A stretch of 64,000 nt of DNA from Verrucomicrobiota bacterium (lineage in GTDB: Bacteria > Verrucomicrobiota > Verrucomicrobiia > Limisphaerales > AAA164-E04): positions 3,392,001 through 3,456,000 of the forward strand of contig CP170459.1 of the NCBI GenBank assembly GCA_047947115.1, written 5' to 3'. Under the pieces are notes generated by a model, which ran no database searches, had not been told where the DNA came from, and worked only from the letters and a program-made list of their open reading frames with translations. Positions 15,135-27,400 of this stretch are shown piece by piece. Made by a program: the position numbers and the translations under genes. Numbering within the stretch: the stretch's first letter is position 1; every line of letters begins with the position of its first letter.

Positions 15135-15884
15135 ATGGCCGCCAAAGTGACATCCCTGTTCGGTGACGATCTCGAAGACCATTTTTACACATGGTTGGTG
15201 GACAGCCGATACGAAGATCCCCGCAAGGTTTTTTCATTGCACGGTGGTGTGCTGAAAATTTCAGGAGATGGATTGGGGTATTTGGCCACCCACCAGGCCT
15301 ACGAAAATTATCACATCAGCCTTCAATTCAAGTGGGGTGAACGAAACTGGCATTGGGGTGACCGCATCGGTAAGGCACGGGATTCCGGATTATTCCTCCA
15401 TGCCACCGGGCCGGACGGGAACAGTCATGACGGAAACGGCGCTTTTATGTCAGCCATAGAATGCAACATCTTCGAAGGTGCCGTGGGGGATTTTCTCCTG
15501 ATAAGAGGAGATGATGCCGAGGGCAAGCTCATTGCCCCTCGCTTAGAAACGCAAATCACTGATCATCTTGATGAGGATGGGTGGCCGACATTTGACACGG
15601 GAGGCACATCGAAATCCCTTGAACGGTGGGGGCGGGTCAATCATCGGTTCAAATCAGCATCGTGGAAAGATGTTACCGGATTCAGCGGGCCTGGGGAGCT
15701 TGTGGTTCCAGGGGCGTGGAACCATTTGGAATGCCGTTGCATGGGGGATCAGATACTTGTTTTTGTCAATCGTACTCTGGTCAATAAGGCTCGAAACGTC
15801 TGGCCGAATCGAGGGCGGGTTCTTCTCCAGTGCGAAGGTTCAGAGATATTTTTTCGCAGAATGGAAATCCGCCAATTGTTGTGA
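15135..15884 (+). CDS. DUF1080 (3-keto-disaccharide hydrolase family) protein
   Basis: SLFGDDL, GYLATHQAYENY, RDSGLFLH, WNHLEC, LLQCEGSEIFFRRMEIRQL. Confidence 0.85.
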   Translation: MAAKVTSLFGDDLEDHFYTWLVDSRYEDPRKVFSLHGGVLKISGDGLGYLATHQAYENYHISLQFKWGERNWHWGDRIGKARDSGLFLHATGPDGNSHDGNGAFMSAIECNIFEGAVGDFLLIRGDDAEGKLIAPRLETQITDHLDEDGWPTFDTGGTSKSLERWGRVNHRFKSASWKDVTGFSGPGELVVPGAWNHLECRCMGDQILVFVNRTLVNKARNVWPNRGRVLLQCEGSEIFFRRMEIRQLL

Positions 15885-16110
15885 AAACCGGTCACCCTCC
15901 GATGTGCACTTCGTGTTCTGAAGGAATCTGATTCTCTTTCCGTATTTTTTCCAATGTTCCATGCAGGCGTTTGAATGTCCACGTGCCGTGGGGGTTGGGG
16001 CGGTAAGGAGGGTTGGGGGAGTTGGCCTGCTGTTTTGAGTGTGTGTTTATTATGCGGTATGTGAGGGGGTATAAAAAATTTCTTCTTAAAATGTGGAAAA
16101 AACGTCAAGG

Positions 16111-16179
16111 ATATCTAGTATGCGACAACTATATCTATAATACGACATAGAAATGACATTTAATAAAGATTTAGTAAAG
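16111..16179 (+). repeat. Two sets of imperfect tandem direct repeats in an AT-rich upstream region
   Basis: ATATCTAgtATgCGACA (16111) / ATATCTAtaATaCGACA (16131), 20 bp period. ATTTAaTAAAG (16158) / ATTTAgTAAAG (16169), 11 bp period. Confidence 0.6.
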
Positions 16180-16268
16180 ATGAATGAATAATGATGAGTC
16201 AAATCTATATTAAAATTGTTTTTTGTTTGAAACATTTCATGAGGTATGCTTGATTCTATGATGTTCTT

Positions 16269-16934
16269 ATGAGCAAAAAAGCTTCCTTATCAAGCTACAT
16301 TCCCTCCTCGCTTGATGGAACGACAGAAGTGATCGAACCGCTGCGTTCTGCTGAACAGAACAAGCTGGTGGACTGCGAACAGACCATCCGACGAGGCATC
16401 AAGGCATTCTTTGAAGTGGGGAAAGCGTTGGCAATTATCAAAACAGAAAGACTATATAGATGCGAATACCAGACTTTTGATCAGTATTGCGAAGAGAAAT
16501 GGGATTTCAGCCGGATACGGGCGTATCAGTTGATCAATGCAACGGCATGCATGGAAATGTTAACAAATGTTAACATCCCGCTTCCGCAGAACGAGGCGCA
16601 GGTAAGGCCTTTATTGAATATTCCTGAGAATGAAATCGCGGAGACCTGGCGGATGTTTGTTGAAGAAAAGGGGGAGCGTCCATTCACGGCGCGTGATGTT
16701 CGAGATTTTGTGGATCGAAAACTTGGAAAGGCAGTCGGGCCAGTTGCGTCTCGATCTTCTGGGAAAGTCAGTCAACGAAATGAATCTTTGAGCATGACTT
16801 TTGAATTGTCCACATTGGTAAAGGAAATTGCCCGAAAGACGGATCGCTATGGGAGTGATGATGAACTGCGGACCTTGGTGGTCAAACTAAAAGACTGTGT
16901 GGATAGGATACAGGACCGGTGTTTGCGGCAATAA
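16269..16934 (+). CDS. Hypothetical putative DNA-binding protein (DUF3102-like helical domain seen in phage/mobile-element proteins)
   Basis: CEQTIRRGIKAFFEVGKALAIIKTERLYR...TFDQYCEEKWDFSRIRAYQLI...PQNEAQVRPL pattern. Family assignment is from recollection only. Confidence 0.65.
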   Translation: MSKKASLSSYIPSSLDGTTEVIEPLRSAEQNKLVDCEQTIRRGIKAFFEVGKALAIIKTERLYRCEYQTFDQYCEEKWDFSRIRAYQLINATACMEMLTNVNIPLPQNEAQVRPLLNIPENEIAETWRMFVEEKGERPFTARDVRDFVDRKLGKAVGPVASRSSGKVSQRNESLSMTFELSTLVKEIARKTDRYGSDDELRTLVVKLKDCVDRIQDRCLRQ

Positions 16935-17099
16935 ACGTATCTCACTATAGATTCTTGTCGGTTTCATTTAGAAAAGTAACTATTCATTTGACATCTTTTT
17001 ACTTTGTTTTATACATATAGTATCGAATTAACGCATCTCGTGATGCGCCCTGCACCCAATTCGATATTTGTTTCAAAGATTAAAATATGAGAAAAGTGT

Positions 17100-17777
17100 A
17101 TGAAAGATTCTATGTTTCGGGTGCAGGTTTTGCTCAGGTTTGTTAAGAAAAATAACCCTTCTGTTGTTTTTATGTTCACTCTGGCCTTCGTTGGTGTCTT
17201 GTCGATGATGTCGGCTCACTCCATTCAGGCTTCGAGTTTTCCTTCCAACCCGTCCTCCGAGCAGGATTGTGACACGGTTCTCTCTGAAAACGCCGGAGCT
17301 CTTTATCATTGGTATACGTCTCGAGGAAATTGGATAGACCGAAAGTATGAATTTCTGACCGACGAGTGTTGGGAAGAGTATGAATATCAATCGGAAGATG
17401 CCAAATCGACGTATGACTCCGATTTGCAAGTTGCAACTGCTGGGCTCCTGGGTGCACTTGCTGGATGTGAACGTTTAGCGGCCGCTTGTTTTGCTGCTGC
17501 AGTGGTGGAGCCGGGCCCCGCCCTGGATGCCATGTGTGCCGGCAGGGTCGCCGCCTGCGTTTCCGTTGCCTGGGCAGCCTGGTATGTCGCCGCAGATATG
17601 GCTCTCGTCGAATTCAGAAATGCGATGGACACAGCCTATCGCACAAGGGATATCTGCACTGATAGAACAGATCTCTTGTTAAATTCAATGCGTGAAAGTC
17701 ATGATTCCGATTATTTCAACAGGTGGTCTCAATTACAGAATGAGTATCAGGCATGTGTTGCGAGAGTAATGGAATAA
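17100..17777 (+). CDS. Secreted Cys-rich hypothetical protein, predicted disulfide-stapled helical hairpin with hydrophobic tip
   Basis: Signal-like N-terminus ending ...AHSIQA. Cys at 57, 90, 123, 130, 146, 153, 186, 219. Ala-rich hydrophobic core at 111-170. Confidence 0.75.
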   Translation: MKDSMFRVQVLLRFVKKNNPSVVFMFTLAFVGVLSMMSAHSIQASSFPSNPSSEQDCDTVLSENAGALYHWYTSRGNWIDRKYEFLTDECWEEYEYQSEDAKSTYDSDLQVATAGLLGALAGCERLAAACFAAAVVEPGPALDAMCAGRVAACVSVAWAAWYVAADMALVEFRNAMDTAYRTRDICTDRTDLLLNSMRESHDSDYFNRWSQLQNEYQACVARVME

Positions 17778-17800: not shown

Positions 17801-18499
17801 ATGAAAAGGAAAACAGACATTAATTGGATGAACATCAGTTTAATTTTGATGTTATTCTCATATTTGTTCGTATCCCATAATCGATTGAGGAATTACGCAT
17901 TGAAGGCGGATGTCCTGAAGGAAGTCCATCAACTGATGATCAGTATGCGGGAAAACAACAGTAAAACCAGTGACCTGCTGCTGACATTACGCACAGATGT
18001 TGACTATTTGATCAAAGAGCATAGGGAAATCGTGACTCGTATCTCCAAGTTGGAGCAAAGTTCGGCCCCTACAGATGAAGATAAAGTCGCTGTATCGGAT
18101 CCCATACAATCAGGTTCCTCAAACGCGGTCACGGGCGAGGCTGATTCTGCCATTAGCTTGGAGGAGGTATTAGCTAACCCATTCGAGTTTTTGAACGATG
18201 AAGAAGTGGGGCTTATCATGGATCAAGCTGCTCAAGACGCCGGTGTGGATGTCGACTGGGATGAAATGCAGGATCGATTGCGTCGGTCTGATGAATTCGT
18301 TGCCCAAATAGACAGCGGGGAATTTGCCGATGTTGCCGGTATATTTTACCAGGCAAGGCAGCAATACTTGGGCATGTTGGATTCTATGTTGAATCAGGAT
18401 TCAACCTTTCAACAAATAATGCTTCCCGAGCTGGAGCATGCCCTTACGCAAGTAGCGGCTGTTCGAGTCATGGAGACAAACAAAAGGAACATGCCATGA
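17801..18499 (+). CDS. Hypothetical protein: N-terminal TM anchor, coiled coil, S/T/D linker, acidic helical C-terminal domain
   Basis: GAGGAG SD upstream; hydrophobic residues 10-25; heptad-like residues 30-85. Confidence 0.75.
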   Translation: MKRKTDINWMNISLILMLFSYLFVSHNRLRNYALKADVLKEVHQLMISMRENNSKTSDLLLTLRTDVDYLIKEHREIVTRISKLEQSSAPTDEDKVAVSDPIQSGSSNAVTGEADSAISLEEVLANPFEFLNDEEVGLIMDQAAQDAGVDVDWDEMQDRLRRSDEFVAQIDSGEFADVAGIFYQARQQYLGMLDSMLNQDSTFQQIMLPELEHALTQVAAVRVMETNKRNMP

Positions 18500-18834
18500 A
18501 ATATTTGCGAAGCATTTTGTTTTGTTGTTTGTGCCTTATGTTTGTCGCTTGCGGATCGAAGGATGATCCATTCGCTGCTCAGGATTCTGCCAAAGGTGCT
18601 CAATTACTGGCACAATATGAAAAAGGGAATCAGCGCGTCAAAGAGATGTCTGTTCCCGGTTACTGGCGTGACAAGGGGCCTCAGGTAGATCCGGTAGCCG
18701 AGATGACAAAAATTAATGATGAACTGAGTGCCACTTTGAAACAACTGACCCAATTGATTCAAAAACGTGAATTGTCCAAAAAGCAATTCGATACATTCAA
18801 GGAAATCACCGGAGTGAACGACATGACACAATAG
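18496..18834 (+). CDS. Small hypothetical lipoprotein
   Basis: MKYLRSILFCCLCLMFVA|CGSKDD lipobox; ATGA overlap with the upstream gene. Confidence 0.8.
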   Translation: MKYLRSILFCCLCLMFVACGSKDDPFAAQDSAKGAQLLAQYEKGNQRVKEMSVPGYWRDKGPQVDPVAEMTKINDELSATLKQLTQLIQKRELSKKQFDTFKEITGVNDMTQ

Positions 18835-19097
18835 TCAGTGATTCTCATCAGGTGATTGGACCCTGGCGCTTCCTTATACTCTTTTGGCAATCTTAGTGAT
18901 TGTCTCCAGATCTTCAGTGCTGAGGTGTTTTGAAGGTTTTGTCTGATTCCTTCAACACCGGATGTAATGAAGGACCTGATAACAGGGTCTGTCCGGCTTT
19001 GTCGGGCAGGCCCAAGTCAATGGAGTGACAGTAAATGGCAGTTTGATAATGCTCTTGTGTGCAAGTTGCCACGTCACCATTTTGGGAGCTTAGTAGA

Positions 19098-20170: not shown

Positions 20171-20851
20171 TTACTGAAAGTAACCCCTGACAGTGTCATC
20201 ACCCAGTTCGGGATCAATGCCCAGCCCTTCCAACCGTTTCACATGGGCATTTTCCACATGCCCATCCAGAAAAAATCCATTCGCCCCCTGACCATGCCGA
20301 CAGTGAACCTGTTTTTCTTCAAAACTCCTGAAATAATGAAACTGTTCACCTTTGAATCCGTCCCTTCCACCGCTTGTCGTGTCGCTCAGGTGCAGGTAAT
20401 CGGAAGGTTGCCGGATGGTTCGTGTATCCAATATTTCCGCAAACACAACCGGACCGTTTGCTGCCGGAGGATCAATCCGCACCCCATATACTCGCAGTCA
20501 ATCCTTCCATTGTTTGGGGGCATAGGATGGGTAAAGGAATAGATTGGATGTCGTGATCGACTGGTGTTGGGCAAGGAGTGTGGCCCATGACTGGTTGGTT
20601 GCTCCCAGAAAATAGATCCGGATTTTGGAGTCGTTGTCATCCAGATAAAGCTGGGTGAATACGCCCAGTTGTTTCAGGTTGTTGACGCACTGGATCTGTT
20701 TGGCCTTGGCTTTGGCCCGACTCAATGCCGGTAAGAGCATGCCCGCCAGTATGGCAATGATAGCAATCACCACCAGCAGTTCGATCAGGGTAAACCCTGT
20801 TTTCCCGGGATGCTCATCCTGATGGACTACCTTTTGATGAGTCGAAACCAT
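20171..20851 (-). pseudogene. Prepilin-type H-X9-DG protein interrupted by an in-frame TGA
   Basis: [14 protein letters not shown]... and RHGQGANGFFLDGHV lie in the same frame, separated by TGA at 20500-20498 (KQWKD*LRVYGVRID). Confidence 0.85.
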
Positions 20852-23800
20852 GTGTTCTGATTGTTTATATTGGCTTGCCAGTTATTCAACCCTACCGTGC
20901 CGGGAACGTCCCGCCATTCCGAGAGAGGATCGGGTGATTTGGATTGCAGGATGATGCCCGGGCCTCCAAGCCAGGATAAAGCGAACGTATCGTTTTCAAG
21001 GACGGGTGGATCCAGCTTGATCTGATGTGTGATCCTGAATACAAGCAGCCCGTCTTCTCCAGCGGCCACATAGGCCAAATCACCCTCCACCACGAGTCCG
21101 TAGGTGTCAACATCTTCAAGATCACTCGAGCCCACTTTTACGAGCTGTGTCGGATCACCATAATCAAGAGCCTGTAATCCTTTTCCTGTGACAAGGGCAT
21201 AGGAGCCATCCATGAGCGCTACGCCCTCCGAAGCCTCCAAATCAATGCTGTCGGTTTGCCTGGGGTGGAGAGGGTCGCTCATATCCACGACTTCGATCCC
21301 GGGAAACAGTTCTCCGTGTGTTGCAAGGAGGGTCGATCCATTCCAGTCCAGTTGTTTGACGGAAGCACCTGGGTAAAATGCCGACAACCACGACGGTTCG
21401 GCAGGGTTTGTGATATCAAGGAATTGGATGCCTCCCCAGTTCTGACTGATAGCCGCTACTTGATTGGCAACTTCGATGTCACTGACCTGCCATTCTGAAA
21501 CGGGGGAGATGAGATTGGACTTCAAGATTGATGGTCCCCTCATTGGGTTTCTCAAATCCACGGACAAAAAGCCTATTGAAGTTCCGATGAATCCCCAGGA
21601 TTTCATAGGGAACAATGCAGAAGTGTCATACTTTGATTTGAGTATTTCCTCCGGAACGTACGGGGTTGCCAGGGAAAAAACTCTGAATGTATCCGACCCA
21701 AGAAACAGATGGTTGCCCTGGATGTTTAATTGATTTGCCCGAACAGGAACATGAGCCATTTTTTTTGGGCTTTCGGGGGATGCTATTTGAATGATTTGTA
21801 TGCCGTCAACGCCGTCTGCCAGGTAGATCAGATCGTTGGAAATGTCCAAGTCGTAGGCAAATCCTTGCCGAGACAATAGTCCGCTTGTGTCAGGCCAGCG
21901 ACCGATGAGTTCTATTTTTACAGGTGGAATGGGGTTGATGGTGACTGTATCGCTTGCAATCTCCTTGTTACCATTCATCACCTGCACCCAGTACTGCGCT
22001 GTTCGATCCACTGATGGCGTAGTGAATGAGGAACGATTGGCATCAGGGATGGGATGGGATTTGTCGGCGCTTGCGCCTTGATACCATTGGTAGCTTAATG
22101 AGCTTGAACCATTCGCTCCCACATTGAGCGTGACCATGTCTCCCTTTGCGATGTGGGTAGAAATCGGATGTTTTGCGATGTTCAATGATTCGGGAACTAG
22201 TTCGAAAATGTTCAAACCTTCAGAGTGTGTTAGCAAAAACGCGTGATCCTTTCCTAATTCAATATTAGTGATCGGTCCGTTGGATGGATGATTTGATATG
22301 ATGATTGGAGATGATGATTGGAGATGATGATTGGAGATGACGGATTGGATACATCGTAAACCGACAAGCCATTCCAGTCTTCAGCGACAAAAAGTTTATC
22401 CTGGCTCAACTCAAGGTCCACGACTTCGTCCGTGTTTGTCTGATGGTACAAGAGTTTCGGCAGGGATGGAACCCTGATATCTGTAATGGCAAATCCGTTT
22501 CTGCTTAAACCCGCATAAACGATTGTGCCGTCTACAGCCAATCCTCCGGTTATACGTCCCGTTTGAGTCCTGTCCCTTGATGGCAGTTGGTAGGAAAAGA
22601 TAAATTCAAACTCGGTTGGAGAAATCGAATCGATGAGAACCAGTTTGTCCAGGGAATCTGAAACAAAGACGTTTTGGATCAGCAGATTTCGATGGAGTTT
22701 CATGCCCTCTGCGACGGCACCACCTCTGGGGATTTCATCCAGCAAGGTGAGGTTGGAAGGATCACTGGTATCAAAGATCCTTGTGTAGTTGATGCGTGCA
22801 TTGTTGATGGGATGGGTCGTTTTATCGGAAACATAAAGTCTTGGTGGATCGTCGGTGGCGGTGAGCTCCACAAAATGAGAGGCGTGACCTTCCTTTGATA
22901 GAACCCACTCTGTGATCGACTGAGGTGATTTGGGATCTGTGACATCATAGACGACCACTTTCGCGATGTCTTCTTCAATGCGGCCGGCGAACAACCGGGT
23001 TTCGGTTGCGGTCAAAAAATCAACATAATGAGCTAATTCAATTTTGCCGAGTAAAGCGGGATGAGCAGGATTCGATAAATCGAGGCACTCAATATATCCA
23101 GGAATAAACCACCTGTAGGAGGGCCGGTTTGATTGGAAAGGTTCTTTGTTCTGGTTAAGGAGATACCCCCGTTGTTCTTCCAGGTGAAACTTGCTGGGTG
23201 TCAGTCCCGTGTCGAAATGTCCAATCAATTGCAGTTTGCCTGCTTCATTCAATTTCAGAATTTGCAACCCACCTTCAAAATCCGCGATGAAAATAACATC
23301 GTCCTGCACCTCGGCTTTTAAAGCTGTTCCGGGGGTGTCGAAGTGATCCATCACTTTCGGCTGAGTCTTGTCATGCACATCGATGACCTGGATTCCAAAC
23401 TGCTTCGAACACAAAATGGCGTGTCCATCCTTAATTTCCATTTCGGGGAAGTCATTCAGGGAAAAGTAAGAGTTTAAAGAATCTGTGGTACCGGTGAGGG
23501 AGGGGGAGTCAGCCTGATTCATGTTCCATATTTGCATGCTATTCACCTTATCTTTCATGTAACGTCCGCTGATGTAAAGATGACCATCCTGGATCTGCAC
23601 ATGATGCACTGGCCACAGACTGTTTTCATTGGGAACAAAAGTGGCAAGGGGTGCAAATTTTCCCGAATCTGATAATTGTGAGATCAACAAGGAACCATAG
23701 TTTGCCTGAACACCCGAAACATAGGCTCGATCCTGTTCGACCGCGACCATACCCGGGCTGCTAAATAAGTGATTGGCTCCGTTGTTGCGCAATGGAAAGA

Positions 23801-24388
23801 CATCGAGTGTCTTTAATTCACTGGCATCACTCACATCCAGCAATCTCAAGCTGGCTTCAGTATGCCCCATGCGTGGTTTCCTTCACCGATGAGCATTCGG
23901 TCTCCTTCGAAGTCAAAACTTTGAATCTCAGTAACCAATGTGTGAGAGCCCATCAAGGCTGGGTGGACGGGATTTCTCAAATCCAGAACAAGCAGTTGTC
24001 CCCGGTATCCTTCTTTCCCATACCGACTATCCCGATGAAACCTGGAAGCCACATAGAGGCGATCATTATGCACGCGCAGCAAACTGGCATATCCTACCCC
24101 GTCTACATTACCCAGGCGTTGAGGCATTGAGGGATCGGATACATCCAAAATCAAAAACCCTCCGTAACCAATGGCCACGTAAGCATATCGATCACGCAAT
24201 GCGACATCGAGCGCCGGACCCCGTGGATGGAGTGGCCATGAAGCAACCTTTTTCAAAACGGGGGATGCAAGTTCAGAATCATGATCGGCCTGTGCAACTC
24301 CGGTAATAGATCTCAACCCTATGGAGAAGAGCATTGCCATCAATACCCCAATCTTTGACAAGCGTTGGTCCGGAAATGGACTCCTCAT
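20827..24388 (-). pseudogene. LVIVD-repeat/Ig-domain secreted protein, paralogue A, split into three ORFs by two frameshifts
   Basis: ORFs 23846-24388, 22254-23870 and 20827-22236 are collinear with the intact 28068-31595 gene. Shifts near 23870 and at the 13 bp repeat 22298-22340. Confidence 0.85.
22298..22340. repeat. Perfect 13 bp tandem repeat (ATGATGATTGGAG) x3.3 inside LVIVD paralogue A
   Basis: Copies at 22298, 22311 and 22324, plus a partial ATGA at 22337. Confidence 0.95.
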
Positions 24389-24468
24389 GGTTCTTTCAGA
24401 ATGCATTGCGCTTTGCGTTTTTGAAGGTGAAATCGTGTCCGAACTTTTGCAGGAATCGTTCCAATTGG

Positions 24469-27400
24469 TCACTTTTTTCTTAATTGATACCAGGCGCTTT
24501 CCTCCTTTGGTGATATGATCCATTCAGATTGTCCATCTGTTTCTGAAATATCCTGCCAATTCGGTGTGACCAAGTTGAAAGTCTTCTGTAAGACAACACC
24601 AGGCGCTCCTGTCCATGAGATTTTAATCTGATCTCCCTGAATAGTGGGTGGGCCCATATAAAGTTCATGTGTGATCCGGTAAATGAACAATCCGTTCATA
24701 CCGGCGGCAACAAATGCCAACTGATCCTTTGTGTCCAGTCCGAAGGTATCCTGTGCTGATAGATTTGCGTTACCCACTTCAACCAACTGATTTCGATCTC
24801 CATAATCAAATACTTGCAATCCTTTTCCGGTCACGCACGCAAAGGATCCGTTCATGGCGGCAACTTGGTTGGCATGGGGGAGGTCGGTCGTGGCTAATCG
24901 AATTGGGTGCTCCGGATCAGTCATGTTGACGAGTTCCAACCCTGGATGGTTTTCTCCATGGGTTGCCAGAATCCAGGTATCCTTCCAGTCCAGGTCCTTG
25001 ATCGAAGTGTCGGGGTAATATGCGGATAGGAATCCTGGTTCACTGGGTTGTTGAATGTTTAAAACCTGAATGCCACCCCAACCTTGTGCGACGGCGGCGA
25101 GGTTCTCATGGCGAGTGATATCCGAAATGGCCCACTCAGGTGCCCTGGTCAATACGTCCGATTTGGATATTTGTGGTTCATTCGTTGTATTGTGGAAGTT
25201 AATCGATTGCCAGCCTCCGTGGCCTCCCAAAATGACCTGGTCTTCATTCATGGGAAGAATGATTTCATCGTCAATGGCTGCGGTCATTTTGTTTTCCGGA
25301 AGCAAGGGATGGGAGATATCCAATTGATGTATGGCGTGACCATTGACAAACAGGACCTTTCCATGAACGGATACCTGAAATGCCGTAGATGGAAAATGGT
25401 TGATTTGTTTGGGGTGGGTGGGATCCGTAATGTCCAGAACACTCACCCCGTCCAGACCATCTGCCAGGTAGGCGTACGAGCCTGAAACAGCCACATCAGT
25501 TGAAAATCCGTTCCTCTCTAATTGATTGGGCTCTGCTGGCCATGTTCCGATGAGTTCAACTTTTGTTTTGGGGATGGGAGAAATGACGACGGTGTCACTG
25601 TCGGTCGAAGTTTGTCCATCCGACACGCGAACCCAGAATTGTTCGGCTTGATGGATGACCGGAGTGGTGAATGCAGGTTGTCGAGCATCAACAATGGACC
25701 GGCTGGTGTCGCCGCTTTCCCCGTGATACCATTGGTAGGACAAATCGCGCCATGAAAAGGCTCCGACATGAAGCGTGGTTGATCGTCCGTTTTCCGCTCG
25801 AATCGTTCGAGGCTGCTTCGAGATCCGCACATCATTTGAAAGCGTTTTGAGAACGCTTAAACCACCGCCCTGTTCAAGCACGTAAACAGATTGGTCGGAT
25901 ATGTGAACACTGGTGGCTGGAGTTTTTGTTGGCAAGTGATGGATATGCGCGGGGGAGCTTGGATCGCTGACATCATAAACATTCAGGCCGTTGGTTCCTT
26001 CCGCTGTGAATAAAAAGTTTCCGTGTGCCTCTACATCGGATACTTTTCCCTTTGTTTTCAAACTCGCTTGAAACACAGGATCGGAAGGATCTGAAATGTC
26101 CACAATACTAAAACCGTGCCACCCTTGCCCCAGGTAAGCAAACCCCTCCGAAACATCCAAACCTCCTGTGGAAATCGCCTCGGTTGTCTGTTTGTCCGTC
26201 ATTTGAATCCATTCGCTTACCGGAGAGAGCACTGAACCATCCCCCACATCAAATATTTCCAATCGAGTGAACCCATCGCTTCCGAATGAATTCAGATATA
26301 GATAATTTCCATTGAGTAAAAAACCTCCATCGACGGATATGCCCTTGGTAAGGATGTTATGGACGGGTTTTGGTTGGGACAGGTCGGTCATGTCGAATGT
26401 TCTTATCTGACCATGGAACCGGCCTCTTTCGCGCTCTTGTGACGTTTCCGCGATATATGCAAAGCGCATTGAAGGATGCAATTGAATTTCGGTGGAATCA
26501 GACGGGAACACTTCTTTGGTGAGGTGGGTTTTTGAAACTTCCTGGACCGATTCTGGATCAGAAACATCCAAAATCACCCATTGAGCATTCTGACCTTCAT
26601 TCCATATGAGAAAAGCATGGTTGTTTAAGAATTGAAATGTTTTCAATGGGTAAGGCGATCGGTAAGTGCCTGAGTGTCCTGGCTTGGAGGGTGTCGTCAG
26701 CTCAATGAAATCCAGAGTGGGATGGTTGCCATACTCGTCCGAACTCATAATGATGCCCTTGTCCTTTGCAAACTGTGATGAAACTGGCAGCAACCCTGTT
26801 TCAAATTTGCCGATGATTTTCATCTGGTCCGGATCATTGATATCTATGATTTGGAGTCCTCCATGTGCATCAGCGACAAATGCAAGGTTGTCCTTGATCT
26901 GGATTTGCCTGGATATGCCTGGCGTGTCGATTTGGTTGAAAAGGACTGGTTCTTGCGGATTTCGAACATCGATCACTGAAATTCCGTGTCTTCAAAGACA
27001 TATGAAAGCGAAGCCGTTCTGTATGGCGATGCCGTTTTGTTCATTTGATACGCTGAATGGATTGTAAGGATCTTCACTGCGCGGAATAAGATTAAAATCA
27101 ATTGAAGCCAAAAGAGCGGTTTTCGACATATCCGTGGTGTCCCAAACATTGAATATGCTTTTTGAAATGGTGTTGTTCGGATCCGAATGATCCAAATCAC
27201 GACGCACTTCAAATGTAAGAGGATCCTTCACATGCCATGCCTGTAGCGATCCTGAACCTGTGAATCTTAGGCTTTGCACGAAATCCAATGGATCTGTTTC
27301 ACTCCAGTTGAGAATGTTCACCTTGCCAGCACCGGAGACAAATAAATAATCGTCGCTTTTGATCAGGGATTGGGGATCCAGCGGTAGGTTACTTCTGTTG

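Follow-up and report, generated by a model that had tools for sequence, protein, structure and literature searches.

Within a 64,000-nucleotide stretch of a Verrucomicrobiota genome (hereafter the window), we describe a gene for a putatively secreted protein of 225 amino acids, P0001, that is predicted to fold into a long helical hairpin with its cysteines placed in mirror symmetry about the turn. The best reading of this gene, on which we hold belief and doubt to be about evenly balanced, is that it encodes a secreted, membrane-attacking antimicrobial toxin accompanied by a downstream gene for a membrane-anchored protector. This reading draws on the fusion of a homologous domain to the C-terminus of an Rhs protein, P0067, and on the conserved pairing of hairpin and partner genes. 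The genome that contains the window (G000) is a single contig of 6.08 Mb with a GC content of 51%; P, L and G numbers denote the proteins, loci and genomes compared. The features of the locus are as follows.

17100..17777 (+): hairpin gene P0001, 225 aa; open reading frame with 6 close homologues at 71-99% identity
17100..17231 (+): putative signal peptide, aa 1-44, hydrophobic core 21-39; from hydropathy, low identity and pLDDT <50
17268..17489 (+): N-terminal arm, Cys57-Cys130 (73 residues), including Cys90 and Cys123; AF2 helix 54-136, period 3.68
17430..17594 (+): tip, aa 111-165, Ala-rich and hydrophobic; contains the E-P-G-P turn plus inner rungs 123-153 and 130-146; from conservation
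17535..17756 (+): C-terminal arm, Cys146-Cys219 (73 residues), including Cys153 and Cys186; AF2 helix 140-224
17801..18499 (+): d1, 232 aa, with an N-terminal membrane anchor, a coiled coil and an acidic helical C-terminal domain; candidate protector or anchor
18496..18834 (+): d2, 112-aa predicted lipoprotein overlapping the d1 stop; lipobox-like F-V-A-C

Cysteine ladder and predicted structure

The eight cysteines of P0001 lie at residues 57, 90, 123, 130, 146, 153, 186 and 219, and the recomputed gaps (33-33-7-16-7-33-33, or CX32CX32CX6C per arm) agree with the initial annotation, as do the sums of all four nested pairs (276) and the centre at Pro138 in V-E-P-G-P. For 8 cysteines placed at random in 185 positions, the exact probability of the mirror pattern is 7e-6, a value that applies to a pattern picked post hoc. 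Of 8,937 six-frame ORFs in the genome, 3 passed a mirror filter, P0001 alone with every cysteine paired; the other two are regular repeats. The 11-residue spacing of Tyr 72/83/94/105 and 205/216 is likewise as claimed, with Tyr 69, 96, 162 and 180 falling outside the series. The hendecad periodicity deduced from it stands for the family, in which the hydrophobic period over 24 homologues peaks at 3.64-3.68 with hardly any power at 3.5, whereas in P0001 taken alone it is confined to the N-terminal arm (peak 3.68), the C-terminal arm peaking at 3.3, the edge of the scan. Both arms, described before as acidic or polar, are acidic (net charge -9 and -3). The tip is indeed Ala-rich, but its hydrophobicity is borderline (best 19-residue Kyte-Doolittle values 1.55 and 1.59), and it includes the charged residues E124, R125, E137, D143 and R149. 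The signal-like N-terminus was also recovered, with a hydropathy of 2.03 at residues 21-39 that suggests a signal peptide; mean identity among close homologues is 51% in this region versus 80-87% in the mature part.

The antiparallel two-helix hairpin proposed earlier is what AF2 returned: the best model, built from a 6-row alignment (mean pLDDT 81), consists of helices 54-136 and 140-224 only, joined at 137-139, and its turn coincides with the centre set by the cysteines. Two of the five models are confident (pLDDT 81, 78, 57, 52 and 49). The hairpin model is well supported, and the predicted rod, about 11-12 nm long when calculated at 1.5 Å per residue, is probably locked by four cross-arm disulfides. 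The likeness to alpha-pore-forming toxins, also suggested at the outset, has no significant fold match behind it. A Foldseek search with the P0001 model gave nothing at E 0.001, the matches to SmhB and AhlB being non-significant (E 0.02-0.07, TM 0.2-0.3); this result, along with the confidence of only two models, counts against the toxin reading. The VIA fold search returned generic coiled coils, with a best Z of 11.4 (rmsd 5.0 over 208 residues) that falls below 13, the level that the tool notes for long helices. The ESM Atlas held no usable match for P0001 or P0011, and the best PDB sequence match of P0001 had an E-value of 0.12.

Going by sequence comparison, no library that was searched has a name for the family. 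P0001 is without a match in Pfam, NCBIfam and PHROGs, in line with the earlier view that it belongs to no named family; none of 26 homologues examined has a Pfam match at E 0.01 or better, and Rfam gave 0 matches across the 64,000 nucleotides. No description of the hairpin family was found in the literature covered, which lies mostly outside subscription journals, and an equivalent without a name could be present among the domain lists of the additional file to PMC3482391.

Conservation and distribution of the family

Initial searches with P0001 retrieved 6 close relatives, and all 8 cysteines are invariant across the 6 aligned rows of these close homologues. That homologues would keep the symmetric spacing was borne out more widely: over 24 rows, 127 of 148 domain cysteines are mirror-paired within 1 residue, against 76±4 under the null (maximum 90 in 2,000 shuffles), a descriptive comparison given that the relatives are non-independent. 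The mirror ladder persists at about 20% identity, C130 and C146 are invariant in 20 rows, and of the optional rungs, at offsets 7, 11, 18, 40 and 66, 10 are present on both arms and 4 on a single arm. The accompanying expectation that the arms vary in 11-residue steps mostly failed, as 13 of 18 full-length rows have a distance of exactly 73 residues between outer rung and tip rung in both arms, with 4 having it in a single arm and 1 in neither; arm lengths of 66 and 62 are rare, and a distant branch, type B, has a 40-residue C-terminal arm. Given the nearly constant 73-residue arm, the family appears from its sequences to be a fixed-length rod and not an adjustable one.

This strictness is not required of a toxin and suits a strut equally, which counts against the toxin reading. 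The hairpin might instead be a strut of fixed length, or a channel subunit, in the envelope of the producer itself, working with inner-membrane d1 and lipoprotein d2 and anchoring its tip in a membrane, akin to periplasmic adaptor hairpins or to spanins bridging membranes. We consider this unlikely. An arm fixed at 73 residues despite about 17% arm identity speaks for such a strut, and the hairpins of EmrA and MacA are among the generic VIA matches (Z 9.1-9.3), but these scores lie within the background of long helices.

The tip is the most conserved region of the domain (0.87 among close and 0.24 among distant relatives, compared with 0.80-0.84 and 0.16-0.17 for the arms) and keeps its Ala-rich, Pro/Gly-turn character throughout the family, which favours the toxin reading; its borderline hydrophobicity counts the other way, with a 19-residue hydropathy of 0.5-2.2 over 24 rows and values of 0.5-0.9 on one side in several homologues. 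The conserved residues of the domain are the cysteines and the turn proline, none of them catalytic in the alignments, and membrane action would thus be the simplest toxic mechanism.

A 13-row profile retrieved 63 representatives (50% clustering) among 1.84 billion proteins, including P0068, a repeat protein that was dropped as false. In the large genome searches, in which 6-11 candidates were scored per genome, the family was present in 6 of 401 order-level genomes, all within the window's Verrucomicrobiota family; with a wider profile the count was 8 of 401, including one false match, and in the phylum samples (401 and 241 genomes) G000 alone matched. Within the genus, the close profile found the family in 2 of 8 genomes, several of which are incomplete, and the wider profile added G006. 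Copies are often multiple, with up to 7 matches per genome among the matches listed, and 14 of the 21 type-A places are broken: in-frame stops interrupt 11 of them, and the other 3 are split across frames, which could reflect sequencing errors. Patchy presence, multiple copies and breakage are compatible with conflict genes and favour the toxin reading; the many broken copies and the absence from 6 of the 8 genus genomes by the close profile argue against an envelope strut.

Several copies in genus g2 adjoin ORFs that we take to be transposase-like, and gene expansion and decay near transposases is a pattern of host-associated bacteria. This would fit a surface-bound or released effector directed at eukaryotic cells, of grazers or a host, in the form of an adhesin tip or a membrane-perturbing, fusogen-like rod, with a partner that serves as a private membrane-anchored chaperone and not as immunity. 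Disulfide stabilisation, which suits extracellular proteins, is compatible with such a role, and the partner layout of anchor, linker and helical domain is that of lipase foldases. We nevertheless judge it improbable, as the window's lineage occurs in estuary and seawater metatranscriptomes and searches of Pfam, NCBIfam, PHROGs and PDB matched P0001 to neither a fusogen nor an adhesin.

More distant relatives were reached through a broken copy in G116, which matches the N-terminal arm of P0001 (E 1.2e-6) and, when its C-terminal arm is aligned, keeps C146 and C186 and lacks C153. Near it lies type B, another kind of secreted cysteine hairpin, which is followed by a membrane gene; G000 has two type-B loci, both outside the window. 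The type-B profile weakly matches a G317 protein (E 0.025) with a cysteine spacing of 73-17-73, comparable to 73-16-73 for C57, C130, C146 and C219 of P0001. A profile of six genus-g2 hairpins, from which P0001 and its close relatives were excluded, ranks P0001 first among 8,937 ORFs in a nearly ungapped alignment (E 5.4e-7). Types A and B were linked by profile comparison at a probability of 92% (E 5.7e-7), a link that deeper alignments alone provided, the type-B-only profiles failing to recover P0001 and the comparison of alignments A5 and A7 being negative.

Among the other matches, L005, L006, L009, L010, L061 and L071 were dropped as false positives, L072 was likewise set aside, and G365/L108 was removed as an FtsK-like coiled coil. 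Eleven places in G000 (e.g. C1:1148332-1149585) each carry a 417-aa ORF with the same profile score, and these ORFs are probably copies of a single insertion-sequence gene. In P0020, P0073 and P0076 the hairpin stands behind N-terminal domains of 180-200 residues without a Pfam match, which are possible further carrier domains. More divergent helical proteins, secreted, with cysteines that are mirror-placed or terminal and with a downstream membrane gene, are encoded at L121:865-1713 (+), with the outer cysteine pair only and a polar tip, and at L124:1369-2280, oriented (-).

Rhs fusion, partner genes and known toxins

One of the 63 family matches, P0067, found at E 1.7e-6 among the 1.84 billion proteins and encoded on a 1,373-bp contig, carries an Rhs core (TIGR03696, 51.3 bits, cutoff 32.5) followed by the hairpin domain at its C-terminus, directly after D-P-S-G at residue 85. 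D-P-S-G marks the place where Rhs toxin domains begin. With P0067 left out of the profile, its tail scores 47.4 bits, and none of 200 shuffles exceeds 3.7. This fusion argues against an envelope strut; that it is a single case, and that a regex scan of G000 for the Rhs-core motif was negative, count against the toxin reading. According to the part of PMC3482391 used here, toxin domains can sit at the C-terminus of Rhs proteins or form standalone cassettes next to immunity genes. In the hairpin family, the C-terminal position was found in P0067; standalone forms with signal peptides and arrays, alternating in G317 and with three partner paralogues in G000, were also found.

A partner-family gene for a single-pass membrane protein lies directly downstream of the hairpin at 17 of 21 distinct type-A places; of these 17, 8 trained the profile and 4 are near-duplicates of training loci, and the four misses include G000 and G007. 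For type B, independent searches with hairpin and partner landed on adjacent genes at 4 new non-orthologous loci, plus the G007 orthologue. At the P0001 locus this position is taken by d1, which resembles the partners in layout, starts 23 nt downstream of the hairpin gene and follows it also in G007, L014 and L016, and which, going by gene order, is a probable protector of the hairpin. It has no significant family match in Pfam, NCBIfam or PHROGs, and partner profiles fail to recover it; the best pairwise hhalign with partner families gave E 0.0011 at a probability of 20%, and the protein that it matches best elsewhere is the partner of another type-A hairpin, a query for which d1 ranks first (E 0.65). 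Its AF2 model (pLDDT 36) is too low for use. The lack of a significant relation between d1 and the partner families, and the weak link between type-A and type-B partners (probability 13%), count against the toxin reading. A Pfam scan of 19 hairpin, partner and third-gene proteins gave sub-threshold matches only and no known immunity domain.

Downstream of d1, d2 is kept in G007 and L016. A three-gene layout of hairpin, anchor and lipoprotein is present in G000, G007 and G006, the third-place lipoprotein of G006 aligning weakly with d2 (E 1.1, ORF background), and this layout favours an envelope strut. So does a faint Rz-like spanin match of d2 (PHROG E 0.083); the d1/d2 layout would fit a two-component spanin (Rz/Rz1), a system in which an inner-membrane coiled coil and a lipoprotein belong to a phage lysis cassette. 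The neighbours resemble housekeeping genes, with 6 window proteins scanned.

The type-B loci of G000 illustrate the pairing with membrane genes. L024 (C1:5290310-5291499, +) is a hairpin-membrane partner pair whose hairpin of 215 aa has nested cysteines and a Y-x-G-C end motif. L025 (C1:5539172-5541797, -), also found in G007, has a type-B hairpin of 178 aa and, behind it, a tandem of three paralogous membrane partners, which in their arrangement resemble an immunity array. In G317, cysteine-hairpin-like and partner genes alternate at L056:8325-12832 (-), beside an insertion-sequence-like ORF pair. In genus g2 the hairpin and partner are often followed by a third small gene encoding a coiled coil, a G-N-G-K/G-x-N-G motif and a C-terminal membrane helix (L032:351-683 (-), L075, L069, L070 and L077); the 2 scanned are without a significant Pfam match.

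Nested cysteines on antiparallel helices recall the small Tims and CHCH proteins, mitochondrial helical hairpins with twin CX3C or CX9C motifs that are clamped by nested disulfides in two rungs. P0001, for which the disulfides are predicted, is about four times longer, bacterial, of 11-residue periodicity and with up to four rungs, and its spacing is not that of twin CX3C or CX9C. ClyA-family toxins (SmhB, AhlB, MakA and XaxA), the top rows of the Foldseek search (E 0.02 or worse, TM at most 0.3), share long helices with a hydrophobic helical hairpin but are multi-helix bundles of 300-plus residues with a head domain, whereas mature P0001 has 180 aa and two helices; P0001 was without a match to a ClyA-family profile in NCBIfam, and the homologue P0070 has a faint XaxA match (16.9 bits, cutoff 125). 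Among polymorphic toxins, the part of PMC3482391 used here lists a pore-former, Tox-WTIP, that has two membrane-spanning helices and occurs with Rhs repeats and signal-peptide export, is given there for proteobacteria and is listed there without a Cys ladder. By eye, its motifs RxxR and Wx[ST]IP are not conserved in the hairpin alignments A11 and A13.

A precedent is Tse5-CT of Pseudomonas aeruginosa, the tail of an Rhs protein, which depolarises cells and against which the membrane protein Tsi5 protects (PMC9637101, in the part used here). Tse5-CT is, by that part of the account, a small Rhs C-terminal payload with predicted membrane helices and no catalytic motif, beside a membrane-bound immunity gene, and it also depolarises cells with an added signal peptide. 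The hairpin shares the C-terminal place in an Rhs protein and the lack of a catalytic motif, and its tip helices and d1 would be the counterparts of the membrane helices and of the immunity gene. The pairs Tse5-CT/Tsi5 and hairpin/d1 are likened by description, no library match linking them: as far as that account goes, Tsi5 has two predicted membrane regions where d1 has a single anchor plus a large soluble domain, and, unlike Tse5-CT, most hairpin members are standalone and signal-peptide-bearing, with a long disulfide-laddered stalk. By these analogies the hairpin would be classed as a probable membrane-acting polymorphic toxin with a partner, an assignment that we would as readily accept as question, and as distinct from Tox-WTIP, ClyA-type toxins and twin-CX hairpins.

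Were the toxin reading correct, Sec export and periplasmic oxidation would lock the helix register, and the 11-residue repeat, a periodicity observed in the family, is predicted to give a nearly untwisted rod that spans about 11 nm between the outer rung and the tip rung. Soluble acidic arms would then carry the conserved Ala-rich tip, whose two helices of 20-25 residues would enter the cytoplasmic membrane of the target in hairpin form, several rods could assemble into an ion-leaking pore, and the single-pass d1, by its gene order, would hold or neutralise the rod in the producer periplasm. More tentatively, with doubt outweighing belief, the family may constitute a new class of pore-forming antimicrobial toxin, a minimal needle built from one disulfide-laddered hairpin of 11-residue repeats, in which the 73-residue stalk is a fixed ruler that brings the hydrophobic tip across a set distance of the target envelope, delivered as an Rhs payload or freestanding and accompanied by a new membrane-anchored immunity family in marine Verrucomicrobiota. 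If so, a structurally distinct toxin and protector family would join the short list of pore-forming polymorphic toxins and offer a handle on antagonism within an uncultured marine Verrucomicrobiota family. Whatever its function, a natural, straight helical rod of fixed length, with a register readable from paired cysteines, would be useful for coiled-coil biology.

Surroundings of the locus and RNA cover

The hairpin locus is present in part in 20 of 22 listed RNA runs, and 11 of these 20, from 11 studies and of estuary, seawater or aquatic origin throughout, contain at least 0.2 of the locus words; the nine runs with a smaller share were set aside. RNA contigs from 4 of 4 runs examined cover parts of the hairpin gene, one of them bridging the hairpin 3' end, d1 and d2; these contigs, which are strandless and level-less and could include DNA carry-over, favour an envelope strut. 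The interval 15,480-16,250 has no RNA cover in 4 runs, which is not proof of silence.

Upstream lies a gene for a 221-aa protein (16269-16934, +) with a weak PHROG match (phrog_15609, E 0.0036), which is syntenic in G007; L014 and L015 carry another upstream gene. Over three 500-base windows at 15750-17250, the GC content drops to 38-40% (genome, 51%). A module that excludes phages or mobile elements, the membrane action of which harms or shields the producer, would accord with this local composition, with the weak phage-family match of the upstream gene and with the patchy distribution, but the Rhs fusion points outward and the hairpin itself is without a PHROG match, and we regard such a module as very improbable.

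Strains differ at the right edge of the locus: RNA contigs from two runs diverge at 18985, and the similarity to G007 ends at 19034. Further on, 20171-26976 (-) holds a prepilin-like gene and several long beta-repeat ORFs, presumably LVIVD-like, apparently split across frames.
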